Below, piece by piece: positions 1-29,023 of a stretch of DNA of 32,000 bases (the stretch's first letter is position 1; the number at the start of each line of letters is the position of its first letter). The stretch lies in assembly GCF_000341895.1 (NCBI RefSeq), contig NC_020409.1:3000001-3032000 (forward strand), read 5' to 3'. Source of the stretch: Pseudodesulfovibrio piezophilus C1TLV30 (GTDB lineage: Bacteria; Desulfobacterota; Desulfovibrionia; Desulfovibrionales; Desulfovibrionaceae). The translations under genes were made by a program, and so were the position numbers. Under the pieces are notes generated by a model that did no database searches, had not been told where the DNA came from, and saw only the letters and a program-made list of their open reading frames with translations.

Positions 1-2
1 TT

Positions 3-1268
3 TTGCCCATGGATACCCATCTGCATCGAATCAGCGGATTGGAGAAGGATTATGTGGATTTCTACGGGGAAGGATATTTGAATGAGTACCCGGCTCCTCC
101 TAAAAAAGAGGTTTCTGTGGCGAATGCTTCTTCGGGACAGTCCTCAAACTCTTCGTTACCCTTGAGAGACTGCGCGAACTCTTCTGACGAATTTGGTCGG
201 CTTATGTGTCTCATCGAAAAACAGAACGGCGCAAAGGGCGGTCGTTCAATGCAATGGCCTCTCGCCGTTTTTCCTTCCTATACGGTCAAGGTGGGGACTG
301 ATGCTTCGCTGGGAGCGGGGCTTTCCCTCAAGGGGATACCCCTTGGGTTGTCCTTCCTGCATGCATCTCAAGCTTTGGCCATGGTGACTATCAAGGACAG
401 CTATAGTGTGGGGCTTCCCGTGGATGTGCTCTACCCGGAAGTGACAGCTTGGGCAGCGCGGCCGGAGGCAAGCGAATTGCTTGATGAATATGTCGATGGC
501 CATGAAAACGTCCTCTACGTTCGGCTTATCACAAAGGTCTTTTTGGCGCAGCAGTTCGACATAGCTCTTCTCTCAAACTCCCAGACTGGCGGCAGGGTAA
601 ACGTCAATACAGAATCAGCCGAGGGAAACGCGACTGCCGACAATGCAACCATGACCGAGCGCTTGACAGAGCTTGTCATGCAAAACCTCGTGACCGCAGC
701 GGCCGACCAGATGCCCAAGGGCGAGGTGGCTTTCATGTCCGGTTCATCCAGTGCCGTGAGCCTGCGAGAGACGTTGGATCGTCCTGTTGTTCTCGGGTAT
801 CACGCTGTTGATATACCGGTTTTTGACGGCGGGAGGCTTGGAGCACCGGTTGCCACACAAAGCTTTCTCCTTGACCGGGCAACGCCCTTGGCCTCGGCCA
901 GGGAAATCAGGGAAAACCGGTTGAGCATCGTGGATCTGAATCGCGAAGTAAATTCTCTATCCAGGACGTGCGCTGTCTTTTTCATGCATATTATGGCGGA
1001 TAGAAGTCCTGATCGTTATGGCTCAATCGTATCTTTACTCGATCGATTGGTCGCAGAAGCTCAAGAAGGATCAGTGACTGAGAGTTTCTTTGACGCGACA
1101 AAAAAAGATTTCGATGACGTTACCGATGACTGGATTAACGAGGCTGCCAATGCATCAACGGAAGAAAGCGACCGGATTTTACGATCGATCAAGGCGGAAT
1201 ACGTGCGAGCGCTCGGGATGGCCCGGCGTCGATGCGAGAGCATGAAGAGCAGGAGGAATTATGAGTGA
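3..1268 (+). CDS. Hypothetical protein, possibly truncated at the 5' window edge. It has a Ser-rich N-terminal stretch, a beta-rich central region with a gasdermin-N-like motif pattern (speculative), and a helical charged C-terminal region.
   Basis: The frame is open from the window edge (TTG at 3, ATG at 9), so the true start may lie upstream. The stop TGA 1266-1268 overlaps the ATG of the next ORF. I recognise no family with certainty. Motifs in order: GTDASLGAGLSLKG, VTIKDSYSV, ENVLYVRLITKVF, GGRVNVNT, PVVLGYHAVDI. Confidence 0.6.
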   Translation: MPMDTHLHRISGLEKDYVDFYGEGYLNEYPAPPKKEVSVANASSGQSSNSSLPLRDCANSSDEFGRLMCLIEKQNGAKGGRSMQWPLAVFPSYTVKVGTDASLGAGLSLKGIPLGLSFLHASQALAMVTIKDSYSVGLPVDVLYPEVTAWAARPEASELLDEYVDGHENVLYVRLITKVFLAQQFDIALLSNSQTGGRVNVNTESAEGNATADNATMTERLTELVMQNLVTAAADQMPKGEVAFMSGSSSAVSLRETLDRPVVLGYHAVDIPVFDGGRLGAPVATQSFLLDRATPLASAREIRENRLSIVDLNREVNSLSRTCAVFFMHIMADRSPDRYGSIVSLLDRLVAEAQEGSVTESFFDATKKDFDDVTDDWINEAANASTEESDRILRSIKAEYVRALGMARRRCESMKSRRNYE

Positions 1269-1473
1269 CGGAATACAGTATGAATACAGAGTGTTTCAAC
1301 AGGATAAACCGTTTGTTTTCGTCTCGGGGCAATTGGAAACATGGAAGGACAACGGTTACCTCGCGGTGGAGCTGCTGGACAGAGAAGGAGTCTGGTATGC
1401 ACTGCGTTGGCTGAAGACTCCTCGAGGCATAGACGGCAAACCTTCCGATGATCCGGAAGGGCTGGAATTGTAG
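1261..1473 (+). CDS. Small hypothetical protein (70 aa), translationally coupled to the upstream ORF.
   Basis: ATG 1261 is preceded by AGGAGG (1250-1255). It overlaps the upstream stop by 8 nt. No recognisable family. Confidence 0.5.
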   Translation: MSDGIQYEYRVFQQDKPFVFVSGQLETWKDNGYLAVELLDREGVWYALRWLKTPRGIDGKPSDDPEGLEL

Positions 1474-3814: not shown

Positions 3815-4144
3815 TTAGCAGCCGCAACCTGAAGAGCCGCATCCACCGCTGGAGCAATCGCATCCGCCGCCGCCACCGACTTCATTTTCGGAATCAATGG
3901 TGAATCCGTATTGAGTCATGTCAATGGTCACTTTGCCTGTAGCTTCTGCCAGTTCCTCATTGATGAGAAAGGTAAAGCTTTCAAGTTCCACTGATTTGTC
4001 ACCGTCGCGCGGTTCGTCGAGGGCCAGGGAAAGCCGCATGCCGCTGCAACCGCCACCTGCGAGATGAATACGGATGGGAGAGACGGTTTTCCCTTCAAAG
4101 TAAGAGGTCAGTTCCTTTTGTGCTGATTCGGTCACATTGATCAT
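3815..4144 (-). CDS. HesB/IscA-like Fe-S cluster assembly/carrier protein (Cys form) with a Cys/Gly/Ser-rich C-terminal tail.
   Basis: Translation: MINVTESAQKELTSYFEGKTVSPIRIHLAGGGCSGMRLSLALDEP...GGGGGCDCSSGGCGSSGCGC. I prefer the start at 4144 over 4168 because it aligns residue-for-residue with the start of the upstream paralogue. Confidence 0.8.
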   Translation of the reverse strand: MINVTESAQKELTSYFEGKTVSPIRIHLAGGGCSGMRLSLALDEPRDGDKSVELESFTFLINEELAEATGKVTIDMTQYGFTIDSENEVGGGGGCDCSSGGCGSSGCGC

Positions 4145-4205
4145 ACTGGTTCCTTTTTTGGGGTTCATGAAAGATTTATGAACGAGTCCCTATCGGGATG
4201 ACTGA

Positions 4206-5313: not shown

Positions 5314-5850
5314 ATGGCGTTTACTCCTGTTGATCGGGACCCTGTCCCACAGCCTTGTATTACGTTGGTAGGGATGGCTGGTGCCGGAAAAACCACCCTC
5401 GGAGCTATGCTGGCCCGACAACTCGATTGGGGGCAGCTTGATACCGACCTGTATCTTGAATCCTACTACGGGATGCCGCTTCAAACTATTATGGACACCT
5501 ACGGACTTGATGACTTTTTGCGCATCGAGGATCACCTTGTCAGCGAATTGGGACTGACAAGGACAGTTATTTCCACTGGAGGAAGTGTCATCTATGGCAC
5601 CCAGGCCATGGCTCGTTTGAAGGAGCTTGGCAAAGTCGTTTTTCTGGACATTGACGAGACAACATTTCTCAAGCGGGTCGGCGATGGCGAGAATCGCGGC
5701 TTAGCCATTGCTCCAGGTGCCAGTATGAGTGACCTTTACAACGAGCGGCAGCCACTGTACCGTGCCGCCGCCGACATCGTGGTCCGCACCGACAGGGACA
5801 CACCGGAAGCATGTGTGGCCCAGATTCTCGAACACATTGATCTGATATGA
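5314..5850 (+). CDS. aroK: Shikimate kinase family protein.
   Basis: Walker A GMAGAGKTT, followed by the DTD motif, STGGS, and a C-terminal pattern typical of AroK. It starts 3 nt after the pyrR stop. Confidence 0.75.
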   Translation: MAFTPVDRDPVPQPCITLVGMAGAGKTTLGAMLARQLDWGQLDTDLYLESYYGMPLQTIMDTYGLDDFLRIEDHLVSELGLTRTVISTGGSVIYGTQAMARLKELGKVVFLDIDETTFLKRVGDGENRGLAIAPGASMSDLYNERQPLYRAAADIVVRTDRDTPEACVAQILEHIDLI

Positions 5851-6461
5851 AAAAATTGACTCCAAAGGCCGCCTACCGCAAACTGGCTTCCATTTATGAT
5901 CGCATGGTCGATCAGTATTCCGATGCAGCAGAAGCGATCGGCATGACCTGCAACGGTTGTCACGATAACTGTTGTCTTTCCTTTTTTCAGCACCATACTT
6001 ACGTGGAATGGGCTTATATGTGGGAAGGATTGAATCAACTGCCCGCAGAGCGACTCGAAGAAATAAGGGAAAAAGCCCGGATATATGTGGAGAGTGCTCA
6101 GGACTCCCTGAATAGGGGAGAACGCCCACATCTCATGTGTCCGCTCAATATCGATGAGCAGCAGGGAATCTGTGGTTTGTACAATCATCGCCTGATGATT
6201 TGTCGTATGCATGGTGTTCCCAATCTTTTGGTCAAGCCCAACGGACAGCAGGTCCAGTTTCCGGGGTGCTATCGTTGTCAGGAATTGACCGACCTCTATG
6301 AGGCGGATGGCAGATCAGCTCCGGTGGTGAATCGGACCTCTCTCTACAAGGATCTGGTCATGCTGGAGATGCAATTTGTGGGCAAGAACCTGAGGCAATT
6401 CCCCAAAGTGGATCATACCATTGCGGAAATGATTGTCCTTGGCCCTCCGCGCTTTCGGTAG
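5847..6461 (+). CDS. YkgJ-family (CxxCxxCC) putative zinc/iron-chelating domain protein.
   Basis: Motif CNGCHDNCC plus further Cys pairs. An ATGA start/stop overlap joins it to aroK. Confidence 0.6.
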   Translation: MKKLTPKAAYRKLASIYDRMVDQYSDAAEAIGMTCNGCHDNCCLSFFQHHTYVEWAYMWEGLNQLPAERLEEIREKARIYVESAQDSLNRGERPHLMCPLNIDEQQGICGLYNHRLMICRMHGVPNLLVKPNGQQVQFPGCYRCQELTDLYEADGRSAPVVNRTSLYKDLVMLEMQFVGKNLRQFPKVDHTIAEMIVLGPPRFR

Positions 6462-6541: not shown

Positions 6542-6575
6542 ACATGGAACAATCTGACGTAAGGTTGTTCCATGT
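6542..6575. promoter_or_regulatory. Perfect 11-bp inverted repeat that includes the annotated start codon of the sensor kinase.
   Basis: ACATGGAACAA (6542-6552), a 12-nt spacer, then TTGTTCCATGT (6565-6575). The ATG at 6572-6574 lies in the right arm and the AAGG lies in the loop. Confidence 0.3.
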
Positions 6576-8518
6576 GTGTACACGAGGGACAGAGTCGGAG
6601 CCGTCCTTGCGGCAGTGTGATGGGTTGGATGACCAGTCTGTTTCTGTTTGCTCTGTCCTGGGTGGTGCTTTTTCCGGCTGTTTCGCCAGCTGCGCCCCTG
6701 GATTCGGTCAGCTTGCAGTTACGCTGGTTTCACCAGTTCCAATTTGCAGGGTACTACACTGCAAAATCAAAAGGTTTTTACCGTGATGTCGGGCTTGATG
6801 TCACGATAATCGAGCGTGATCTCAAAGTGAACCCGGTCCATGCCGTGCAGCAGGGAAATGCTCAATTCGGTGTGACCAATTCCGAGATCCTGCTGCACCG
6901 GATGCGAGGGGAACCGGTGGTCGTCATGGCCGCGATTCTTCAGCACTCGCCGCTTGTCCTGCTCACAACGAAAAAAGACCGCATATCTTCACCCCATGAC
7001 CTGATGGGGAAGCGGGTGCTCATGAGCACCAAGACAATGGATGTCGAATTACTTGGCATGTTACAGAAGGAGCATGTCCCCCTCGGTCGACTGGATATCG
7101 TGGATCGTTTTTCGAGCAGAAATGATTATCTTGATCCCTCGTTCGACGCAGTTGCCGCCTATATCACCAATCAGCCATATTATCTTGAAGAGAAGGGGAT
7201 TGCCTACGGGGTTCTTTACCCTGCCTCTTATGGCGTCGATTTCTATGGAGATTGTCTTTTTACGACAGAAGATCAGGTTCAGAACCATCCAGACAGGGTC
7301 CGGGCATTTCATGAAGCGAGTCTGAGAGGCTGGCAGTATGCGATGGCGCATCCTGATGAAATTATCGATTTGATCATGGCGGACTATGCCCCTCGCAAAA
7401 CAAAGGCGCATCTGGAGTATGAAGCAGCGGCCATCAGGAAGCTGATGCTGCCGGACCTTGTGTCCATAGGCCATATGAATCCCGGCAGGTGGGCATATAT
7501 CGGAGAGGTCTTCAGAAGTCTCGGTCTGACTTCAACGCCTCTCGACATGGGAAGCTTTCTCTATTCACCCAATCCAGTGGGAGATCATGCCGCACTGAAA
7601 AAATTTCTCTATATATTGGGAGTCGTGGCTCTTGTCTTGATGTTGGGGGCCATTTCCCTCGGAGTCTTCAACCGAAAATTGCAGATTCAGGTGCAACAGA
7701 GAACCGAAGCCCTCACTCTCAAGGCACTGGAACTGGAACGTGCCAACCAGCGACTGACCGAACTGGATCGAGTTAAATCGGCTCTGCTGTCGTCTGTTTC
7801 GCATGAGATCAGGACACCCATGACTGCAGTGCTGGGATTTGTGAAGCTTATTGGCAAGGAGTTCAAGAGAACCTTTGCTCCGCTGGCGCATGGCAATGTT
7901 TCACTGGAGAGAAAGCGCGACAGAATCAGCAAAAACCTGAATGTCATTTCCGTCGAGGGAGAAAGACTCACTCGACTTATCTCTGATGTTCTTGATCTTT
8001 CCAAAATCGAGTCAGGGAGCGTTCACTGGCAGGATCAGGATATTGATATGGCAGAGGTTGCCTACAATTCCGTGGCAGTGGTGCAGGAACTGTTTGCCCA
8101 GAATCCGGGAACAAATCTGTTCATGGATGTCCAGGATAACCTGCCTCGGGTTCACGCCGACCCGGACCGTATTATCCAGGTTTTGATCAATCTGCTGGCC
8201 AATGCCGTGAAATTCACCGCATCCGGTGAAGTTCGACTCACCCTTGCTTCGGATGGAGCCGGTCATATCGAGATCGTGGTCAGCGATACTGGCATCGGCA
8301 TCGCTCAGGAAGATGCAGAGGATATCTTTAATATGTTTCATCAGGTCCGGCGGGGTGATACCGTTCGTTTCGGCGAGCAGGGAGCCGGACTTGGGCTGGC
8401 TATCTGCAAGGAAATCGTGGAACATTATGGTGGTTCCATTTTTGTACACTCCGCTCTCGGCCAGGGCAGTCGTTTTACAGTGAGGCTTCCCGCAGTCGTC
8501 CCGAAAACCGAAAACTAG
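6572..8518 (+). CDS. Sensor histidine kinase with an NMT1/THI5-like (ABC substrate-binding-like) periplasmic domain. No cognate regulator is adjacent.
   Basis: Signal/TM segment, periplasmic LQLRWFHQFQFAGYY...-type domain, second TM, coiled coil, HisKA box SHEIRTPMTAV, and HATPase N/G boxes (LLANAVKFT, DTGIGI, GAGLGLAI). The start is uncertain (6572, 6620 or 6629). Confidence 0.85.
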   Translation: MCVHEGQSRSRPCGSVMGWMTSLFLFALSWVVLFPAVSPAAPLDSVSLQLRWFHQFQFAGYYTAKSKGFYRDVGLDVTIIERDLKVNPVHAVQQGNAQFGVTNSEILLHRMRGEPVVVMAAILQHSPLVLLTTKKDRISSPHDLMGKRVLMSTKTMDVELLGMLQKEHVPLGRLDIVDRFSSRNDYLDPSFDAVAAYITNQPYYLEEKGIAYGVLYPASYGVDFYGDCLFTTEDQVQNHPDRVRAFHEASLRGWQYAMAHPDEIIDLIMADYAPRKTKAHLEYEAAAIRKLMLPDLVSIGHMNPGRWAYIGEVFRSLGLTSTPLDMGSFLYSPNPVGDHAALKKFLYILGVVALVLMLGAISLGVFNRKLQIQVQQRTEALTLKALELERANQRLTELDRVKSALLSSVSHEIRTPMTAVLGFVKLIGKEFKRTFAPLAHGNVSLERKRDRISKNLNVISVEGERLTRLISDVLDLSKIESGSVHWQDQDIDMAEVAYNSVAVVQELFAQNPGTNLFMDVQDNLPRVHADPDRIIQVLINLLANAVKFTASGEVRLTLASDGAGHIEIVVSDTGIGIAQEDAEDIFNMFHQVRRGDTVRFGEQGAGLGLAICKEIVEHYGGSIFVHSALGQGSRFTVRLPAVVPKTEN

Positions 8519-8868: not shown

Positions 8869-8982
8869 AACCAACCCTCCATGGTGGCTGTGTCCTTATC
8901 TTATCGGTCACCACACGAATTTTCTCTAGGGAGGGTATGGAAGTGAAGGAGTCGATGGGGAATGATTCGGCGGAATCTCCAT

Positions 8983-9017
8983 CATAAGAAAGGCCCTCCC
9001 GATTGTACGGGAGGGCC
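8983..9017 (-). terminator. Intrinsic terminator downstream of the octaheme cytochrome gene.
   Basis: GGCCCTCCCG-attgta-CGGGAGGGCC forms a perfect 10-bp stem. It is followed on the minus strand by TTTCTTAT. Confidence 0.6.
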
Positions 9018-9057
9018 AGGGGGCGAGGTTCGCTATGGAGTGGCGAAAGCCATCGGC

Positions 9058-10419
9058 TTAGTCTGGAGCGGTGGACATGACTGTGGACAATTCTTCGATC
9101 TGGCCGGTTTTCAGGCGATAATCATAGATGGCCTTCATATCCTTGTAGACCTGGAAGACTTGGAAGAAACCATGCCAGTGGGCATAATCCGGGCCGTTCA
9201 TGGCCGTCCCGTGACGGGCGCGACGACCGCAGTGATGCCACAGGAAGTACATCAGCTCCTGGAAACCATCAGTCCACGGATCTTTGCCCAGCAGATTTTT
9301 TTCCTGAAGCACGGTTTTCATTTCGACAGCCTTGTCCCAATACGTATTATACAGGGCAACTGCGTTATCAAGCTGCATACGCTGGCTATTGGTATGCAGG
9401 GTCGAGTGGCAGCTCTTGCAGACCTGGCGCATTTTCTTGTCGCCTTCCATGCCATTACCGCGATCATTTTTGCGAAGTTCGCTGCGAGCATGGACCAGGT
9501 CCCATTTGAGACGCTCGGCCACGTTATGCGTCGTGGTCAATTCGCCTATGCCGGACATGTGGCAGACAGCGCAGGTTGGTGCGTCATAATCTCCAGGTTC
9601 CCAGGTGTCGGGAGCGGCTTCAAAGTTCCATTTTTCACTGTGGGCCTTGTAGATTTGCCCGTGCTTGGACTCTTCGTAGATTTCGATCTGCGGATGATCC
9701 GGACCAAGGTGGCAGGAAGCACAGGCTTCGGGCTTGCGGGCCTCGGATACGGCAAACTGGTGACGTGTATGGCAGACGGTGCAGTTGCCGACACTGCCGT
9801 CTGGATAGCGGGTGCCGACGCCTCCGGGCCAAGTGTCATTAATGGGCTTGTGGTCCGGGCCGAGTTCGACCTGTGTTCCGTGGCACATCTGACACCCGGC
9901 GGCACGGCTTGCACGATTGGGGGCAGAGCCTTTTTCAACGCCAAGGAATTCCGCACCTTCATGATGATACATCAGGCCGATGAATTTGGGGACCTCCAAC
10001 AGGGGACGCCCCGAGTTCATGGCGTGATTCGATTTCAGGAACTGCTCCACTTCGCGCGGATGGCACTTGGAGCAGGTTTTTGAGGAAACCATGGGCGAGG
10101 TGTAAATATTGGTGCCGCGAAGGCCCTCGCACTGGCTGGCCATGGGAGAATCCTTTTCCACGACGTGACAGTCATAGCAGGAGACCGTGGCATGGCCCAT
10201 TTTGCCGTTTTTCCAGTTTTCAACTATGCCGGGTGTCTTCTGGGAGTGACACTCGATGCACGATTTGGCTTCCTTGGTGAAGCCTCGGTGCACCACGAGC
10301 TGCCTCTTCTCGAGATTGACGCCTTCCAATTCGGCTGCGGCCTGTGCCGGTCCAGCCAGCATGAACGTCATGCAGCATATGAATCCGGCGACGAAGATCG
10401 TACCGAAAACTTTTTTCAT
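9058..10419 (-). CDS. hao: Periplasmic octaheme c-type cytochrome, hydroxylamine oxidoreductase (HAO) family. Probably a reductive Hao-like enzyme.
   Basis: Signal peptide ending AQAAA. Eight CxxCH motifs (CIECH, CYDCH, CSKCH, CQMCH, CTVCH, CASCH, CAVCH, CKSCH) and no CxxCK. The segment [30 protein letters not shown] matches my recollection of HAO-family sequences. Confidence 0.75.
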
Positions 10420-10428
10420 AAACCTCTC

Positions 10429-10998
10429 CTACTCCTTGCCCGCGACTTGTGGGCTTTTCTTGAAATAGTTGTTGATTTCCGAGACCATGTTCTTGTGGCC
10501 GACATGCTCGTGGCAATCCACGCAACGTTTGTCCAGATCGCCGATGAGGTACTGCCTGTGCGCGAGAATCCCACTGGTCCTCATGCCTTCCGGCTCGAGG
10601 TTGACGTGGCATTTGCGGCAGGCATTGTCGTAAGTGAATCCGCGCCGGTGTTTGGCGCGACCAGCCCAGTCGTACGTGGAGGGATCAATAATCATGTTCA
10701 TGATGATATCCCGCGTTCCGGTGTACGCCTTGGTGGCCACATACTCCACAAAACCGCCATGCGGCAGGTGACAGTCCACACATTGCGCTTCAAGCCCTTT
10801 GTCGTTGTTGCCACCGTGTGTTTCATTGCGCCAGGCCGTTCTGAAAGGCTTCATGACGTGACAGGAAACACAAAAGACATCCGTATTCGTAGCCTGAATC
10901 ATATACCCCGAGGCCAAAATAACGGAGACGGCAAGAACGACCCCAATGAGCACGCCTGGCAACAGCTTTCGGCTATGACGCTTCTCACTGTCTGCCAT
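10429..10998 (-). CDS. NapC/NirT/NrfH-family membrane-anchored tetraheme cytochrome c (quinol dehydrogenase).
   Basis: N-terminal TM helix and four CxxCH motifs (CVSCH, CVDCH, CRKCH, CVDCH). It lies 9 nt upstream of the octaheme gene. Confidence 0.85.
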   Translation of the reverse strand: MADSEKRHSRKLLPGVLIGVVLAVSVILASGYMIQATNTDVFCVSCHVMKPFRTAWRNETHGGNNDKGLEAQCVDCHLPHGGFVEYVATKAYTGTRDIIMNMIIDPSTYDWAGRAKHRRGFTYDNACRKCHVNLEPEGMRTSGILAHRQYLIGDLDKRCVDCHEHVGHKNMVSEINNYFKKSPQVAGKE

Positions 10999-11120
10999 TC
11001 ATACATCCCTTATTTGCAGTTGAACGTGTCAAGAGTGCCCCTCTTGGGCGCTCGCCTTTACCAACCTCGCTGACCGGATTGATGAACGATGCACAATCCG
11101 ATGAGAAACTTTTTTGTTAG

Positions 11121-15132: not shown

Positions 15133-17421
15133 CTAATGAACCCCCGCCTTGTTTAGATGAGGGACATATTTCCTGTCATCGCCCTGGATATGGTTGACGA
15201 GCCAGTCCTTGAGGAACTCCATGACATCGTTGGTCAGGGCAGCCTTGCCGTTTTTGAATTGGGCTTCAAGTTCGAGAACGGTATTGACGAGCTTCTTGTG
15301 CTTGGCGACATGAGCAATCATGCCGGGGTAATGATGTTCTTCGAAAAGAGCTTCTTCCGTGGCGAAGTGATGGACGGTATATTCCTTCAGCTCTTCGAAA
15401 ATTTGTCCGAGTTTCTGGCTTCCGCGTCCACTTTTCATCGCGGAGTTGAGGTCGTTGACCAGGCCGACGAGCTTTTTGTGCTGACTATCGATTTCACGGA
15501 TGCCGATGACGAAATCATCATTCCATTCCATGAGGTTTGATGATCTGCGAGGAGATGTTCCAGAGGTGCGCAACGCTCGGCCCGGGACTGGGGTTGCCGG
15601 TTCGACTCCCGCTTTGAGTAGGAAGGGAACATATTTTCTGTCCGTGCCCTGGATGTGGTTGACAAGCCAATCCTTGAGGAACTGCATGACGTCGTTGGTC
15701 AGGGCGGCCTTGCCTTCCTTGAACTGTTTTTCGAGTTGGAGCACGGTATCCACCAATTTCTTGTGTTCAGCTTCATGGGCAAGGGTGCCCGGATAATGGT
15801 GTTCCTCGAAAAAGGCTTCTTCCGTGGCAAAATGGTGGACGGTGTATTCCTTCAACTCTTCGAAAATTTGTCCCAGAATCTCCTTGCCCTTGCCAGCTTT
15901 CATGGCTTCATTGAGCTTGTTGACGAGATCAACAAGCTTGTGATGTTGAGTATCTATCTCTTTCAGGCCGAGGACGAAATCACTGTTCCACTCCATGAGA
16001 GAGCCGCTCTTGTGACGGCTGGTTCCTGGAAGGGGAGAACGTCCGGTGTTTCGAGCTCTGCTCCCTGATTTAGGCCGGTCACCTGTCGTTGTCTGCATGT
16101 CGGACCAATTGCGCTGCTCAATGGCTGATATATTGCCATCGCTCATATCCTGAATTATCTCGGCGAGAATCGTGGTGTAGGATGTGACATTATCAATCAT
16201 TCCATGGGATTCTTCCATCCCATTGACTATGAGCGAGGACGTTTCATTGACCTCATCCACGGAGCGGTTGATTTCTTCGCTGGTAGCGGATTGTTCCTCG
16301 GCAGCGGTGGCTATGGCATGGGCCTGGTCCGAACTCAATTCAACAATGCCGACGATGTCCTTGAGGGATGTTTCGGCTTCGGCTGCGAGGGAGCTTGCCT
16401 TTTCCACGGCCTCGGCAGCCTGGGTCATCTCAGTCATGGAGCTGTGAACGCCTCCTTGGATGGCCTGAACAGTGGAGCCGACTTCCTTGGTGGCGTCCAT
16501 GGTCTTCTCTGCCAGTTTTCTGACTTCGTCGGCAACCACCGCAAAGCCCCGTCCAGCCTCACCTGCACGAGCCGCCTCAATAGCCGCATTGAGCGCGAGA
16601 AGATTTGTTTGGTCCGCGATATCCGTAATGACACTCATGATCTTGCCAATATCATCAGCTTGCGTTCCCAGCCCATGGACGCTGTCTTTCATGCGTTGGG
16701 TCAATGCGCTGACAGACGCCACAGCCTCGGCAACCTGGTCGACCACAGCTGCTCCTGAAGTTGCCCGATCCTTGGCTTGGGTCGCTTGAGCCGCAGCTTC
16801 GGAAGCATTGCGTGCCACATCAAGAATGCTGGCATTCATCTGGTCCATGGCAAGCGCGCTTTCTCCGCTCCGGCTGAGTTGCGTGTTGGCTCCTTCGGTC
16901 ACTACGGCGACCTGTTCGGACAAGCCCTCTGTGGCTGCATCAAGAAGATCAGTTAATTCCCTGAGTTTGGTTGCGCCGGAGATCAAGCCCTGTTTCCATT
17001 TGGCCGTTTCCTTGCGGGCTGTTTCCAGTTCATCTCCGGCAGCGGTCAGTTCGTGTCGGGACATGGCGAGTTGATTATCCAGCTCTTCGCACTGGTCGGC
17101 CTTGAGTGTCGCTTCTCCGGCAATGATGTCGATGGCATTTTTAAGCTGGAGGAATTCCCCGGTGCAGTCGCCTTCGTAAGGTGCGCCGTAATTACCGTTG
17201 GCGATACGGGTAGCGTAGCGGATGGTACGCATCAGGGGAAATAGGGCGCTTCGAAAGATTACCAGGGAGATCACAAGAATCAGGATGGAGCCGAGACTCC
17301 CTGCCAGAATCACGGTCAGATTCGTGTTGGAAGCGGAGAAGATTCCTGTCAGGCTGACGATGATCGAAATGACACATATGAAGACAAGGCTGAAAGCCAG
17401 TTTGAGCCGTATGCTATGCAC
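15133..17421 (-). CDS. Methyl-accepting chemotaxis protein (DcrH-like) with two tandem C-terminal hemerythrin domains.
   Basis: Two closely spaced TM helices, a HAMP-like linker, and the MA signalling domain ([37 protein letters not shown]). Two copies follow of LMEWN.DF..G..EID.QH..LV...HF..EE..F....YP......H...V...W...HI...D. The start is uncertain: GTG 17421 with AGGA upstream, or ATG 17577, which would overlap the upstream gene by 62 nt. Confidence 0.85.
15136..15999 (-). repeat. Tandem intragenic duplication encoding the two hemerythrin domains (copies 15601-15999 and 15136-15534, period 465 nt).
   Basis: The two 133-aa units align without gaps. Long identical blocks include [20 protein letters not shown] and [12 protein letters not shown]. 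The DNA copies are clearly similar but diverged. Confidence 0.85.
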
Positions 17422-17515
17422 GATTGATCCTGTAATGCTTTTGCCGTTGAGATGGCATTGATTATCACTACGGGAAGAATACCGGGAGCGGCTTCGGAAT
17501 ACAATCCCTATTTGT

Positions 17516-19340
<1,825 letters not shown>

Positions 19341-22351: not shown

Positions 22352-22567
22352 AGACTTCTCCGATCATGTTGTGTGTGCAACCGACCCGTGTCGGCAGACG
22401 CTCTCAATAGCTCAAAAGAACAGGGCTGGCAACGGTGCACGCCCTTGTGTCAGAGAGGTAAGACATTGGGGAGAAATGTCCAGTGAGTCGAGAATGAATG
22501 ACTCGTTGCTTGCGGGCAACTTGCATTCAGTATAAGAATTTTGATTATGGTGAGGGAGCTTGTTTTT

Positions 22568-22583
22568 ATGAGATAGATCTCAT
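22568..22583. promoter_or_regulatory. 16-bp palindrome upstream of the first TPR paralogue.
   Basis: ATGAGAT-ag-ATCTCAT, about 45 nt upstream of ATG 22627. Confidence 0.25.
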
Positions 22584-22626
22584 CTTTGTACCAATGAATT
22601 TGCCTTGGGAGGTTCTTCGGAAATCC

Positions 22627-23595
22627 ATGGAAGATGCACGAATACATACCAGTGCGGACAGCCGCGTCGAGTCGAGTGAAGGGTGTTCCGGCCTGGATAA
22701 TCCGGATGAGCAGCTCCGGTGCGTCTTTTCCTCGACCACGGAGATTCGGATAGGAACCGGGACCACGGCCAAGAAGCAGATTTCGAAGCTGCTGTGGTAT
22801 GTGAACCAATGCGGACTGGATGAATACGGTATTCGCAAGATCAATCCGAACTTTGTTCCGGTGGGTGAAGAAGACCTTATCGATCAGGAAAAATTGCTTA
22901 CTGACTACACTCCCGAGGTCGAAATTCACAATGCACGGGTCATGCCTGCCATGAGGGCGTTGAAAAAGACCATTGCCAAAGGTGACAAGCATCGGGAGAA
23001 CGGTGAACCGCTGTCAGCCGAGATGGAATACACCCGTGCACTTGATGTGGATGAAACCAATGTCAGGGCCATTTTTGGTTTGGGATTGGTCTATCTTGAT
23101 CGCAAAGACAAGGATAAGTCGCGTGGAGTTTTCGAGCAATTGGTTTCGCTTCAAGGTGCTTTTCATGAAAATCACAAACACCTTTTTAACGAATTCGGCA
23201 TAGCCTTGCGCAAGAATGGCCTGTATGATGAGTCGGTGCAGTATTATACCCGCGCTGTGGAATTGACCAAGAATGATGAGAACCTGTACTATAATCTGGC
23301 ACGCGCTTTCTATGAAAAGGGAGACTGGGAGTATTGTTTCACCTTTGCCAGCAAGGCTCTGGATATCAATGCCTATCATGAGCATGCCATTGCCATGTGT
23401 CGATTCATGATGACTCTGGCAGGAAACGAAAACCTGCGGACCAAATATGATAAACCGCCGGTCCCGGCAGACCTCGTTGCACAGGCTTCCGCGCGACTCG
23501 GCATAGATGCGAGCGATGAGCATGCAATGGTCGAAATCGATCCAGACGGCTTCGGAACGGAGTTGGTTTCGGGCGATACCACATCCGAAAAGTAG
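22627..23595 (+). CDS. TPR-repeat protein, paralogue 1 of 3. Conserved N-terminal beta-rich domain plus TPRs.
   Basis: The start at 22627 (MEDAR) was chosen because the distance to the conserved RCVFS motif then matches paralogues 2 and 3. Shared blocks: HLFNEFGIALRK, DENLYYNLARA, KPPVP. Confidence 0.75.
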   Translation: MEDARIHTSADSRVESSEGCSGLDNPDEQLRCVFSSTTEIRIGTGTTAKKQISKLLWYVNQCGLDEYGIRKINPNFVPVGEEDLIDQEKLLTDYTPEVEIHNARVMPAMRALKKTIAKGDKHRENGEPLSAEMEYTRALDVDETNVRAIFGLGLVYLDRKDKDKSRGVFEQLVSLQGAFHENHKHLFNEFGIALRKNGLYDESVQYYTRAVELTKNDENLYYNLARAFYEKGDWEYCFTFASKALDINAYHEHAIAMCRFMMTLAGNENLRTKYDKPPVPADLVAQASARLGIDASDEHAMVEIDPDGFGTELVSGDTTSEK

Positions 23596-24226: not shown

Positions 24227-25249
24227 GTGAGTGCTCATAAGCATGATTCCGGCTCCGAGCCAGGACTTGATGCTCTGATTTCCGAAAGCGGCTTCGAATT
24301 CTTGGCGGATGGCGGTTTGATTCGGTGTGCCTTTTCAACAGTGAAAGCGATCAGGGTGGGGGTCGGGAGTAGTAGTCGGAAGCATGTGAGTCAGATATAT
24401 TGGTATGTTGAACAGATTGATGACAATATGTTTGAGATGCGGCGTATTAATGACAAGAATGTTCCGGCTGGAGATGTGACTGTCATTTCCCTGAATCGCT
24501 TGCTTGATGAGTATACTCCGGAACTTGCCTATTATGAAGAAGTGGTGCTTCCGGCGCTGGAATCCCTCGAAGAAACAGTGGGGCAGGGTGATGCATTTCG
24601 CAAAGAAGGTCGGCTCTATTCTGCGGAACTTGAATACGGGAGAGTCCTTGAAATCGAGGAATCGAATGTCCGGGCTGTTTTTGGTCTGGGGTTGATCCAT
24701 GCCAGCCGTAACGAAGTACAACGAACCAGAGAAATATTGAAACAACTGGTCGATATTCAGGCTGCCTTTGATGGAAAAAATCAGCATCTTTTCAACGAGT
24801 TCGGGATAGCCCTGCGCAAAACTCGTCTCTTTGAGGAGGCCGTGGCATATTATAGTCGCGCATTGGATTTCGTGACAGATGACGAGAATTTGTATTACAA
24901 TCTTGCCCGAGCGCATTATGAAGCAGACAACTGGACAGAGTGTGTGGAGGCTTTGGCCTTATCATACCGGCTCAACCCCGAGTTGGTGGTGACACGAGAC
25001 CTGCTTACGGTCATAGTGAAGTTGGCAGAAAGTGAACGGTTATCCAAAGAATCCGGCAAGCCGCCAGTTCCCTCTGGAATAGGGAACAGAGCACGGCGGT
25101 TGTTGGAAGCGGAAGAGGGTCTTCCTTTGGATGAAAACCCGGTGCGCAGGGAAGAAGTCGAGGCTTCCTTTACGGGAGCCAGTGGCCGGGCTCGCTCGGG
25201 AGCTTTGACAAAGGCAGCACCGGACAATTCGGGTGATGAGGAAAATTGA
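24227..25249 (+). CDS. TPR-repeat protein, paralogue 2 of 3.
   Basis: GTG start with AGGTGG 6 nt upstream. It shares the same conserved blocks as paralogues 1 and 3. Confidence 0.75.
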   Translation: MSAHKHDSGSEPGLDALISESGFEFLADGGLIRCAFSTVKAIRVGVGSSSRKHVSQIYWYVEQIDDNMFEMRRINDKNVPAGDVTVISLNRLLDEYTPELAYYEEVVLPALESLEETVGQGDAFRKEGRLYSAELEYGRVLEIEESNVRAVFGLGLIHASRNEVQRTREILKQLVDIQAAFDGKNQHLFNEFGIALRKTRLFEEAVAYYSRALDFVTDDENLYYNLARAHYEADNWTECVEALALSYRLNPELVVTRDLLTVIVKLAESERLSKESGKPPVPSGIGNRARRLLEAEEGLPLDENPVRREEVEASFTGASGRARSGALTKAAPDNSGDEEN

Positions 25250-25322: not shown

Positions 25323-26354
25323 ATGACCGAAGACTCGGGACGGCTCGAACTTGATACCGGGCAATCTTACCTCGCAGAAGCAACCTCGGATGAAGGGTTG
25401 GTGAACTGCGTGTTTTCTTCCACTTCGATGATCAAGGTGGGAACAGGAACGACCACGCGTTCTCACCGGACGAAGTTGTATTGGTATGTGGAAGAAATTG
25501 AAGACAAGCTTTTTGCGGTTCGTCAGATCAATACGAATAGTGTTCCATCCGGGGATGAAAAGATTATCTCACTTGATGAATTGATGGCGGAGTATTCGCC
25601 TGAAGTGGAATATTTCGAGGATCAGACTCTCCCGGCAATGCAGAATCTTGATGATCATCTTGACCTTGGAGAATCCCTCCGGGAGGAAGAGCGGTTTTAC
25701 AGTGCAGAGCATTGTTTTACCAATGCCCTTGGCATAGATGAAAAAAATGTCAGGGCATTGTTTAATCTCGGCTTGATTTACCTCGAATCCCACAACATCG
25801 AAAGAGCGCGGGATATGATGCAGGAGATTCTCAAAATCAAAGCGGCTTTCAAAGGAAAAAATCACCATTTGTTCAATGAATTCGGTATCGCTTTGCGCAA
25901 GAGCGGACTATACGATGAATCTGTGGAATATTATGCCAAGGCAGTGGAGTTTGCCCCGGAAGATGAAAATCTTTTCTATAATCTTTCCCGAGCCAACTAT
26001 GAGCGCGGGAACTGGGAGGAATGCGTCTCAGCCCTTTCCCAGAGCCGACTTCTTAATCCTGGGCTTGGGGCGGCAAAGAGTCTGGCCAAGTTGATCGTGG
26101 AGATGCACGACAAACCCTTGCTATGCGAGAAACAGGGAAAACCGCCTGTTCCGGCGAATATCATCGAGGCCTTAGGGGGTGACGTTCTTGGAAAAGACAG
26201 AGCTGTCTCCTATTCGCCAGGACAAGCCGAATCTGTGGACCGTGCACGCGGTAAGGCAACGAAATCTTCCGAAGAAAAGCAATTCACAGAGAAAGAGCAG
26301 TCGTCAGAACAAAAAGGCCCTTCTGATTCCGTCAAGATTGAGTTTGATATCTAA
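25323..26354 (+). CDS. TPR-repeat protein, paralogue 3 of 3, with a Ser/Glu/Lys-rich tail.
   Basis: ATG 25323. It shares the same conserved blocks: VNCVFSSTSMIKVGTGTT, HLFNEFGIALRK, DENLFYNLSRA, GKPPVP. Confidence 0.8.
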   Translation: MTEDSGRLELDTGQSYLAEATSDEGLVNCVFSSTSMIKVGTGTTTRSHRTKLYWYVEEIEDKLFAVRQINTNSVPSGDEKIISLDELMAEYSPEVEYFEDQTLPAMQNLDDHLDLGESLREEERFYSAEHCFTNALGIDEKNVRALFNLGLIYLESHNIERARDMMQEILKIKAAFKGKNHHLFNEFGIALRKSGLYDESVEYYAKAVEFAPEDENLFYNLSRANYERGNWEECVSALSQSRLLNPGLGAAKSLAKLIVEMHDKPLLCEKQGKPPVPANIIEALGGDVLGKDRAVSYSPGQAESVDRARGKATKSSEEKQFTEKEQSSEQKGPSDSVKIEFDI

Positions 26355-26479: not shown

Positions 26480-29023
26480 TTATTTGGCAGATGCCAAGGG
26501 CCACACTTCATCAATTTTTTCGATGGGCTTGATCGTAATACGTTTGAGCAACTCTTCGGGTATTTCGCTCAAATCCTTCTTGTTTTGCGAGGGGATAAGG
26601 ACGGTCTTCATACCTCGTGATACGGCAGCGAGAATTTTTTCCTTGATTCCGCCGACAGGCAGGACCCGGCCACGCAGGCTTATTTCTCCGGTCATGGCCA
26701 TTTCCGGGTTGATGGGCGTATCCGTAAGTGCGGATATGAGGGCCGTAACCAGGGTTACTCCTGCTGATGGGCCATCCTTGGGAGTGGCTCCGGCCGGAAC
26801 GTGGACATGGATATCCATCTCTTCGGTGAACTTGGGATTGATGCCATATTTGTCCGCTCGGGCACGGGCGATCGACAGGGCGGCCTGGGCCGATTCCTTC
26901 ATTACCTCGCCCAGTTTTCCGGTCAGGGTCAGCTTTCCTTTCCCTGGCATGGTGGAGACTTCGATATGCAACAACTCTCCTCCAACAGGGGTCCACGCGA
27001 GCCCCACTGCGACGCCTGCGGGCAGGACTGTTTCCTTGGCGTCTTCCAGGAAGTGAGGCGGCCCAAGCAGGGTGTAGAGATTCTTGGCAGTGACCTTGAA
27101 CGGTCCCTTTTCGCCTTCGGCCTTTTTTCGGGCCATTTTGCGACAGAGGGTGCCTATTTCCCGTTCCACATTACGAAGCCCGGCTTCGCGGGTGTATTCC
27201 CGGATGACCTTGGAAACCAGCTTGTCGCTTATCTCCAATTCCTTTTCCTTGAGACCGTTTTCAGACACCTGGCGCGGAATGATATAACGTCTGGTGATCA
27301 CGGTTTTTTCCTGCTCTGTGTATCCGGGAATACGAATGATTTCCATGCGGTCACGCAGAGGACCGGGAATGGAATCAAGCATGTTGGCTGTGCACACGAA
27401 CATGACTTTGGACAGATCAAAAGGAACATTCAGGTAATAGTCAGTGAACGAGAAGTTCTGCTCCGGATCGAGGACCTCGAGCAGGGCAGATGACGGATCG
27501 CCACGGAAGTCATTTCCGAGCTTGTCTATCTCATCAAGCATGATCACCGGATTTCGGGTACCGCACTGCTTGATGGCCTGAATGATACGACCGGGCATGG
27601 CTCCTATATACGTGCGTCTGTGGCCTCTGATCTCTGCCTCATCACGCATTCCTCCAAGAGACATACGGTGGAATTTACGGCCCAGAGAGCGTGCAATGGA
27701 ACGGCCCAGAGAGGTCTTGCCAACACCGGGAGGCCCGGCAAAGCATAGAATGGGTCCCTTCATCTTCGGATTAAGCTTGCGGACGCTCAGGTATTCAAGG
27801 ATACGCTCCTTGACTTTCTCCAGATCGTAGTGGTCCTCATTGAGAATATATTCGGCTTTCTTGATATCAAGCCGATCGCGGGAGAGTTTTTTCCAGGGGA
27901 GTTCGATCATCCAGTCCAGATAGGTTCTGATGACGGTTGCCTCACTGGATTCGGCATGCATGGATTCCAGGCGGTGCAACTGCTTGTTCGCTTCCTTCAT
28001 CACATCCTTGGGCATGCCGGATTTCATGATGCCCTGCTTGAAATCTTCCATCTCCTCGGTTTCATCGCCATCATCGCCCAATTCGCGTTTGATGGCTTTC
28101 ATCTGTTCTCGCAGATAAAAGTCCCGTTGCGCCTTGTCCATGCCTTCCTTGGCCATGGTCTGGATGCGGTTTTGCATGTTGGCGACCTCAACTTCCTTGA
28201 GGAGTTGGCTGTTGACCAATTCCAGCCGGATAATGGGGTCATAGCACTCAAGGATTTTCTGAGCGGCGCTGACCTTCATGCGAAGGTTGGATGCAATGAG
28301 ATCGGCCAGCCTGCCGGGTTCATTGACGTTATTCAGAACGCTCATGATGTCCTGAGAAGAAATGCCACGCAGGGAGAGGATGCGTTCGGACTGCTCGCGG
28401 GAAGAGCGAATCAATGCTTCCTGCTCACTGGTCAATTCAGGAACTTCAGGTTCCATGAGAGGTTCGAGTTCGGCAATGTGGAACGGGTCACTGGAGGTGA
28501 ATCGCTTCACTTTGGCGCGGGCCAGTCCCTGCACCAGCACCTTGAGGCGACCATCAGGCATTTTCAACATTCGCATGATCATGCCGACAGTACCGGTTGC
28601 GTACAATTCATCCTCGGTCGGGTCTTCCACTGCCTCGTCTTTCTGGGTGAGAATGAGGATGTATCGGTCAGCGGCGAGAGCTGCATCCACGGCCTTGACA
28701 GATTTCTCGCGTCCGACAAAAAGGGGCAGTATCATATAGTTGAAGACAACAATATCGCGTACGGCAAGCACTGGAAGTTCTTGTGGAATATCTGCTGGAT
28801 TGGGACCCGCAAGATCATCCCCTTCGCCAAAAATGGCTGCACTGCCGGGGGCACTGGTCAAAGCTTCGATGATTTCAGGCAACTCTTCACCGCTTCCGGG
28901 ACGGATTGTCCCCTTGTCACGGGGGGTGGCGGGTTTGTTGGGAGATGAGTTCTTGTCCCGTATATTCTTCTTGCGTTGTATGCGCGAAGGCTTGATCGGT
29001 GTATTTTTCTTTTTCCTGCTCAA
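26480..29023 (-). CDS. lon: ATP-dependent Lon protease with a Lys/Arg-rich N-terminal extension.
   Basis: Lon N-domain (LPVLAVRDIVVFNYMILPLFVGREKS), Walker A GPPGVGKTS, and protease Ser motif PKDGPSAGVT. The only start upstream of the N-domain with an RBS (AAGGA) is TTG 29023. Confidence 0.9.
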   Translation of the reverse strand: MSRKKKNTPIKPSRIQRKKNIRDKNSSPNKPATPRDKGTIRPGSGEELPEIIEALTSAPGSAAIFGEGDDLAGPNPADIPQELPVLAVRDIVVFNYMILPLFVGREKSVKAVDAALAADRYILILTQKDEAVEDPTEDELYATGTVGMIMRMLKMPDGRLKVLVQGLARAKVKRFTSSDPFHIAELEPLMEPEVPELTSEQEALIRSSREQSERILSLRGISSQDIMSVLNNVNEPGRLADLIASNLRMKVSAAQKILECYDPIIRLELVNSQLLKEVEVANMQNRIQTMAKEGMDKAQRDFYLREQMKAIKRELGDDGDETEEMEDFKQGIMKSGMPKDVMKEANKQLHRLESMHAESSEATVIRTYLDWMIELPWKKLSRDRLDIKKAEYILNEDHYDLEKVKERILEYLSVRKLNPKMKGPILCFAGPPGVGKTSLGRSIARSLGRKFHRMSLGGMRDEAEIRGHRRTYIGAMPGRIIQAIKQCGTRNPVIMLDEIDKLGNDFRGDPSSALLEVLDPEQNFSFTDYYLNVPFDLSKVMFVCTANMLDSIPGPLRDRMEIIRIPGYTEQEKTVITRRYIIPRQVSENGLKEKELEISDKLVSKVIREYTREAGLRNVEREIGTLCRKMARKKAEGEKGPFKVTAKNLYTLLGPPHFLEDAKETVLPAGVAVGLAWTPVGGELLHIEVSTMPGKGKLTLTGKLGEVMKESAQAALSIARARADKYGINPKFTEEMDIHVHVPAGATPKDGPSAGVTLVTALISALTDTPINPEMAMTGEISLRGRVLPVGGIKEKILAAVSRGMKTVLIPSQNKKDLSEIPEELLKRITIKPIEKIDEVWPLASAK

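Follow-up and report, generated by a model that had tools for sequence, protein, structure and literature searches.

A diderm family of predicted lipoproteins with a predicted gasdermin-like fold, one of them encoded at the edge of a Pseudodesulfovibrio piezophilus sequence window

Introduction

Does the first gene in a 32,000-nt stretch of Pseudodesulfovibrio piezophilus C1TLV30 DNA (contig NC_020409.1, positions 3,000,001 to 3,032,000; the whole stretch is called the window here) encode a gasdermin? From the letters alone, the original prediction had read its first open frame as a speculative pore-former in which motifs recalling human gasdermins are followed by a helical tail; it expected any partner protease upstream, outside the window, and called for structure prediction followed by a structural search. 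Characterised gasdermins work from the cytosol in cell-death immunity and depend on dedicated proteases for their activation; the eukaryotic members are cytosolic and activated by caspases or granzymes. Bacterial gasdermins (bGSDMs), at about 240-265 aa, are cytosolic and lack a signal peptide; they are self-palmitoylated on Cys3/4 and inhibited by a C-terminal stretch of about 20 aa, and 43 of 50 adjoin a protease gene, often near defence genes (10.1101/2021.06.07.447441).

The frame proves to be the 3' part of a gene for a predicted lipoprotein, P0001. A fold relationship to gasdermins is quite likely. Our favoured reading, held with evenly divided confidence, is that P0001 is an exported, periplasmic, lipid-anchored, membrane-active gasdermin relative without a protease-coupled anti-phage role; the part of it that we infer more tentatively, and regard as somewhat doubtful, is pore formation or membrane insertion by the lipoprotein.

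The predicted fold of the lipoprotein

The frame 3..1268 on the plus strand is open to a TGA stop at 1266-1268. A homologue search returned P0001 (517 aa), which is 100% identical over the whole window open reading frame (ORF) and assigns to it residues 97-517, i.e. the C-terminal 421 residues. Sequence 5' of the window was taken from a near-identical metagenome locus, L004 (99.7% identity), in which window position 1 corresponds to position 8287. The 'TTG start' placed at nt 3 is no real start but a product of the cut at the window edge, because in L004 the coding sequence extends 286 nt upstream of window position 1 and the gene begins there. The most conserved N-terminal motif (residues 46-96) is encoded upstream of the window, as are the signal peptide and Cys37 of the lipobox. 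The window itself contains:

1..1268 (+), 5'-truncated coding sequence in the frame of nt 3, encoding residues 97-517 of the 517-aa lipoprotein

A single-sequence AlphaFold2 (AF2) model of P0001 was unusable (predicted local distance difference test score, pLDDT, 35) and was replaced by a template-free model built on alignment A2, which holds 150 members of the family. This model has a pLDDT of 81.6 and a predicted TM-score (pTM) of 0.76, and its elements are, by residue:

signal helix, then helix 38-58
short strands and helices to residue 122
disordered linker 124-150
strands 189-233
two helices 236-262
21-residue strand 267-287
low-confidence insert with helix 313-328
long strands 338-369
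five C-terminal helices 395-514

When the model was compared with the PDB by Foldseek, its best three matches were the three bacterial gasdermin crystal structures, Bradyrhizobium 7N50, Vitiosangium 7N51 and Runella 7N52 (Johnson et al., 10.1101/2021.06.07.447441):

7n50, bacterial gasdermin crystal structure, E 5.2e-5, probability 1.00, TM-score to target 0.51
7n52_C, bacterial gasdermin crystal structure, E 1.6e-4, probability 1.00
7n51, bacterial gasdermin crystal structure, E 1.5e-3, probability 1.00
8sl0 and 9a84, bacterial gasdermin oligomers, lower in the list, probability about 0.7
8jyy, fungal gasdermin-like RCD-1, lower in the list, weak match
GyrA and topoisomerase II, unrelated, the sole competing matches, probability 0.1-0.4

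Neither MACPF/CDC nor other toxin folds occur in the top 50 matches, which also contain no human gasdermin structure, and the BFVD viral fold library returned nothing significant. The gasdermin N-domain is a twisted antiparallel sheet flanked by helices. The structure prediction and structural search that had been called for place gasdermin structures first, and the model supports the gasdermin-like core and predicts, with good confidence, a helical segment of about 130 aa at the C-terminus. In this prediction the mature protein consists of a gasdermin-like core (about residues 38-385) and a variable helical C-terminal domain.

Sequence comparisons with gasdermins

With either of two family profiles, A2 and A3, gasdermin 7n50 ranks first among 177,635 distinct PDB sequences. 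Database-wide the match is not significant (E 1.0 and 0.71); its per-sequence P of about 5e-6 translates, by our own calculation, into a targeted E of roughly 1e-4 to 1e-3, which is applicable because the gasdermin hypothesis was fixed before the searches and the PDB gasdermin sequences number only a few dozen (20 matching GSDMD, plus bacterial and fungal ones). The alignment is collinear across 121 residues and sets family YLRVVsRVYLtgavdVSL opposite FFVVTKVWRARGIRISV, with YLRVVsRVYL opposite FFVVTKVW. It is anchored, at its weak E of about 1, by the strand that had been likened by eye to VLYV and LYVVTEVL (LYVRLITKVF). Searched as a single sequence, P0001 had no match to PDB sequences at E <= 10.

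All five motifs on which the original prediction was based are present in ORF 3..1268:

GTDASLGAGLSLKG, nt 294-335 (+), first motif, starting at residue 194
VTIKDSYSV, nt 384-410 (+), second motif, starting at residue 224
ENVLYVRLITKVFLAQQFDI, nt 504-563 (+), third motif, starting at residue 264
TGGRVNVNTESAEGNAT, nt 585-635 (+), fourth motif, starting at residue 291
RPVVLGYHAVDI, nt 780-815 (+), fifth motif, starting at residue 356

The equivalent stretches chosen in human GSDMD start at 88, 120, 156, 181 and 212. Their order is collinear with that in P0001 and the first three spacings are alike (P0001/GSDMD 30/32, 40/36 and 27/25), but similarity is at chance. Smith-Waterman comparison of the core with the GSDMD N-domain, whose sequence was verified against the PDB, gave z = -0.55, with 211 of 300 shuffles scoring as high; against a 121-aa piece of bacterial gasdermin 7N50, z was 0.5. 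Alignment of the family profile to a 14-sequence GSDMD N-domain alignment by hhalign returned a probability of 1.2-2.3%, a negative result that is weak evidence because the GSDMD profile is shallow (Neff about 2; GSDMD orthologues only). The criterion of Johnson et al. was an hhsearch probability > 0.8 (10.1101/2021.06.07.447441). A second, non-significant hhalign alignment (probability 0.08) joins query 85-374 to GSDMD 11-236 and pairs W246 with W, RPE with QPE, the YLRVV strand with VFVVTEVLQ, and PGG... with IPSGS.... The motif matches to human gasdermins therefore do not hold as sequence similarity, pairwise or profile to profile; the gasdermin-like reading is supported by the predicted structure and marginally by the profile match.

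Neither P0001 nor 100 members matched the Pfam Gasdermin models PF04598 and PF17708 at E <= 10. Fragments of 7N50 recovered from the HMMER output and used as queries gave no word-index candidate, no tblastn match on plasmids and no relatives in two metagenome scans. Family residues ~84-107 ('..Q..lY...GFLPL') have weak PDB profile matches to FGF19 (QRQLYKNRGFLPL; E about 1.3-2.7), probably a coincidence of short motifs.

A conserved lipoprotein signal

The N-terminus of P0001, MKAVRRIVCVVVLACCLGAC followed by TKD, is a canonical Sec/lipoprotein signal peptide with the lipobox LGAC, and it shows the positively charged n-region, hydrophobic h-region and lipobox with invariant Cys that mark lipoproteins in sequence. 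These features are a property of the family: in A2 the lipobox Cys column is filled in 144 of 150 members, the peptide ahead of the Cys is 21 aa long in the median, its last 12 residues are hydrophobic in 100% of members, and 92% have a net-positive n-region. Because of this signal peptide P0001 is predicted to be exported, unlike the cytosolic gasdermins.

The E. coli lipoprotein sorting rule on +2 Asp is established but not universal. Since Asp stands at +2 in just 2 of the 144 members, the lipoprotein is probably sorted to the outer membrane. Its Cys would become N-terminal only after processing by signal peptidase II, so that the predicted route of lipidation differs from bGSDM palmitoylation. 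Two further cysteines, C153 and C165 (nt 171-173 and 207-209), are confined to the closest clade and form a likely periplasmic disulfide, in keeping with the oxidising periplasm.

Size and spread of the family

The family is large, unnamed and uncharacterised, and belongs to diderm bacteria. Among 1.84 billion representative proteins searched with HMMER it comprises 754 clusters (50% identity) at E <= 1e-3 and 343 at E <= 1e-30, with members ~400-700 aa long that are called 'hypothetical protein' where the sources name them at all; Pfam, NCBIfam and PADLOC have no match to it at E <= 10. When GTDB representative genomes were scanned, 115 relatives turned up, which belong to Planctomycetota, Verrucomicrobiota, Acidobacteriota, Pseudomonadota, Desulfobacterota, Nitrospirota and Spirochaetota; a scan of genome contigs with P0001 alone as the query found no match. 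We retrieved the loci of 80 of the 115 relatives, from Planctomycetota, Verrucomicrobiota, Acidobacteriota, Pseudomonadota, Desulfatibacillum, Nitrospirota, Nitrospinota, Brocadia, Treponemataceae and Rokubacteria; their hosts are diderms throughout. Thalassospira, Desulfatibacillum alkenivorans and Phycisphaera mikurensis are among the organisms that carry a homologue. No copy of the family was found on plasmids and phages by tblastn. We found no link of gasdermins to a lipoprotein family in the literature, of which our coverage was incomplete, so that an earlier description is possible.

Domain layout and conservation

Within the window, the gene divides into the following regions:

3..83 (+), residues 97-123, end of the conserved N-terminal subdomain, family motif GFLPLD..R
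84..257 (+), residues 124-181, variable linker of low confidence, holding the clade-specific C153/C165
258..413 (+), residues 182-233, conserved Gly-rich strand-loop-strand, FPSY.F.V..G.GL.LA.P.QGVPVGL...GSVTI.DA.TYG
414..503 (+), residues 234-263, two helices with invariant W246 and an RPE motif
504..575 (+), residues 264-287, long beta strand LYVRLITKVFLAQQFDIALL with invariant R270, anchoring the 7N50 profile match
576..725 (+), residues 288-337, variable insert of low pLDDT with one predicted helix
726..869 (+), residues 338-385, conserved long beta strands, PGG...AS.RSV.L.E.F.RPLVIGYLGFD.PI..G.LG.P..T, closing the gasdermin-like core
870..1265 (+), residues 386-517, C-terminal five-helix domain, pLDDT about 85-92

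Conservation was measured by region as gap-weighted information per column. The values, in bits per column, are:

residues 46-60, N-terminal helix, 3.3
residues 182-233, strand-loop-strand, 2.8
residues 61-123, 2.6
residues 338-385, strands, 2.6
residues 264-287, strand, 2.5
residues 124-181, linker, 0.6
residues 386-517, C-terminal domain, 0.6

Just outside the window, at 8001-8286 of L004, are encoded the lipobox Cys and the motif VAKDWCxTIRASQVIPVYPLTEDLQPGDVFLV, which is near-invariant across phyla. Beyond the core, the tail varies from 22 to 199 aa in the family (median 113 aa); that of P0001 measures 136 aa.

Several of these regions line up with gasdermins. The strand-loop-strand 258..413, which contains the first and second motifs, would by collinearity be equivalent to the first membrane-hairpin region of gasdermins; the helices with W246 and RPE are collinear with W..QPE of GSDMD in a non-significant alignment; and the insert 288-337 matches the second extension/hairpin region in position. 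Taken together, strand regions 182-233 and 264-369 are collinear with the two gasdermin hairpin regions in the non-significant hhalign alignment and in the 7n50 profile alignment.

Genomic context

The setting of the gene is housekeeping and chromosomal, without a conserved partner. Upstream, as seen in L004, lie a YitT/DUF2179 gene that is transcribed divergently, SAM_HAT and CobS, none of them the protease expected there. A Peptidase_S49 gene lies 3 kb off on the opposite strand, with an aminotransferase gene after it. Downstream of the lipoprotein gene, within the window, come genes for a Fer4 membrane protein, a CBS protein, an Fe-S biogenesis protein, a PyrR-type phosphoribosyltransferase and shikimate kinase, and farther on sensor kinases, cobalamin and haem genes, and Lon. 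When all ORFs within ±4 kb were clustered, no family, proteases included, recurred in more than 8 of 82 loci, and PADLOC defence models gave no relevant match. Peptidase_S49 and Lon (26480-29023) were considered as activators and rejected, being housekeeping proteases that are distant or on the opposite strand.

Comparison with known gasdermins

The lipoprotein family shares with bGSDMs its best structural and best PDB profile matches, a lipid-modified Cys at the functional N-terminus (predicted here) and a C-terminal extension past the core. It differs from them in its predicted Sec export and its lipobox, in its length of about 400-700 aa, in a helical tail (median 113 aa, five predicted helices in P0001) in place of a peptide of about 20 aa, and in the lack of an adjacent protease (82 loci) or of a defence or mobile context.

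A second comparison is offered by the bGSDM-like, cytolysin-like proteins of Gammaproteobacteria (PMC10153256, Extended Data Fig. 9). Their gasdermin-like pore-forming domain, like the gasdermin-like core of P0001, is recognised by structure only, and they too are not encoded with proteases. At the C-terminus they have an Ig-like beta-sandwich with a relationship to the membrane-binding domains of cytolysins (PMC10153256), whereas the C-terminus of P0001 is all-helical in the model and its N-terminus is a lipoprotein signal.

Eukaryotic GSDMD, GSDME and GSDMA3 (PF04598 + PF17708) have the order predicted for P0001, a beta-rich N-domain and then a helical C-domain, and share the strand, helix and 'xYVVxxV' elements in collinear order; no significant sequence or profile similarity to them was found. 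In these proteins the helical C-domain (PF17708) is a repressor that packs on the N-domain. Clustering of the AlphaFold database yielded unannotated gasdermin-like structure clusters, described without mention of lipoproteins or signal peptides (10.1101/2023.03.09.531927). Like the lipoprotein family, these clusters are bacterial, lack Pfam annotation and have a gasdermin-like predicted fold, and the family might be one of them.

Proposed mechanism and alternative explanations

As an exported, membrane-active gasdermin relative, the lipidated protein would be tethered to a periplasm-facing membrane leaflet and possibly held closed by its C-terminal helices. On an envelope signal the tail would be cleaved or displaced by a general periplasmic factor; strand regions 182-233 and 264-369 would then extend and insert into the membrane like gasdermin hairpins, with the effect that the envelope would be permeabilised or remodelled. 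As membrane primer, the acylated N-terminal Cys could take the role of the palmitoylated N-terminal Cys in bacterial gasdermins, whose palmitoyl has been proposed as a membrane primer (PMC10153256). Gasdermin-like proteins outside a protease operon have a precedent (PMC10153256).

A number of observations weigh against this reading. The fold assignment comes from a single predicted model, and its matches have modest TM-scores (0.32-0.51 normalised to target) and large root-mean-square deviations (RMSDs; 8-14 Å). None of the curated gasdermin models of Pfam and PADLOC was matched by any of 100 members at E <= 10, and the hhalign comparison with GSDMD adds to this negative side. No activating protease or trigger was found. 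The proposed inhibitory domain is poorly conserved and variable in length, and conservation peaks elsewhere, in the N-terminal helix/strand motif. This last pattern suggests binding of a partner or ligand, which it fits better than a typical fast-evolving pore-former; the conservation across phyla is unusually strong for a pore-former.

The alternative that survives best, rather unlikely in our view, takes up this point: P0001 would have a gasdermin-type fold and not form pores, being a stable envelope lipoprotein that binds a conserved lipid, glycan or protein partner through a hydrophobic groove and the N-terminal motif, in a structural, transport or sensing role. The inactive bacterial gasdermin fold sheathes an acyl chain (10.1101/2021.06.07.447441), which lends such a role plausibility, as do the strong conservation of the core across phyla (especially residues 46-80 and 182-233), the housekeeping context and the lack of an activating protease and of a defence or mobile context. 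Set against these are the presence and collinearity of both regions that turn into hairpins in gasdermins, and a variable helical tail that looks like a regulatory appendage. To our knowledge, moreover, all characterised proteins of the gasdermin fold permeabilise membranes.

We consider it improbable that the resemblance is a false positive of the model and of Foldseek, and the protein an unrelated beta-rich lipoprotein. Low query-normalised TM-scores (0.18-0.27), the RMSDs, the chance-level sequence tests against human gasdermin and the database-wide E of about 1 for the 7n50 profile match speak for such an error; but two independent methods converge on one small family among about 175,000 PDB sequences or entries, the three bacterial gasdermins come first at probability 1.00 with the next unrelated matches (GyrA, topoisomerase II) at 0.1-0.4, and the hypothesis was stated before the searches. 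The version closest to the original prediction, a cytosolic two-domain effector of cell death or anti-phage defence with a dedicated protease just upstream, agrees with the gasdermin-like predicted fold and the helical C-terminal segment but is largely refuted, and very improbable, given the signal peptide and lipobox kept in 144/150 members, divergent, housekeeping genes upstream, no protease or other neighbour conserved in 82 loci and no PADLOC match.

Carried further, the reading of P0001 as an exported gasdermin relative would make the family an unrecognised branch of gasdermins, periplasmic and lipid-anchored, that many diderm phyla carry in their core chromosomes and that acts on the envelope from the periplasmic side, permeabilising or remodelling it without a dedicated protease, and with a Cys acylation evolutionarily linked to bGSDM palmitoylation. 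In this full form the proposal is speculative and we hold it to be unlikely. If true, it would bear on a possible descent of gasdermins from secreted membrane-attacking proteins and would inform the question raised in PMC10153256 whether gasdermins evolved from secreted pore-forming proteins. A conserved Sec-exported, lipid-anchored family with a gasdermin fold would extend the superfamily to the bacterial envelope, make a connection of lipoprotein acylation with gasdermin palmitoylation open to test, and place about 750 unannotated sequence clusters in a structural class.

Other genes of the window

A small gene follows the lipoprotein gene directly, its ATG overlapping the stop (ATGAGTGA):

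1261..1473 (+), small gene encoding 70 aa

Its product lacks a signal peptide and has no Pfam, NCBIfam or PADLOC match. It shares 49% identity with the product of the gene in the same position in locus L001 (E 1e-20) and is detectably related to that of a 71-aa gene in L002 and L003, and its position is kept beside the closest relatives of the lipoprotein gene (L001, L002/L003 and L004); these comparisons indicate that the gene is real. It was not found in the 80 distant loci and was rejected as a family-wide partner because it is clade-specific.

Elsewhere in the window we noted the following:

3815-4168 (-), Fe-S cluster biogenesis (HesB/IscA-type) protein with an unusual Gly/Cys-rich C-terminal tail, GGGGGCDCSSGGCGSSGCGC
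5847-6461, 8962-10083 and 10165-11073 (+), ORFs of 204, 373 and 302 aa without Pfam match, the first Cys-rich
6572-8518 (+), histidine kinase with an NMT1/THI5-like periplasmic binding domain as its sensor part
15133-17577 (-), methyl-accepting chemotaxis protein with two C-terminal hemerythrin domains, likely an O2 or iron sensor
22498-23595, 24227-25249 and 25323-26354 (+), three TPR-repeat genes on one strand

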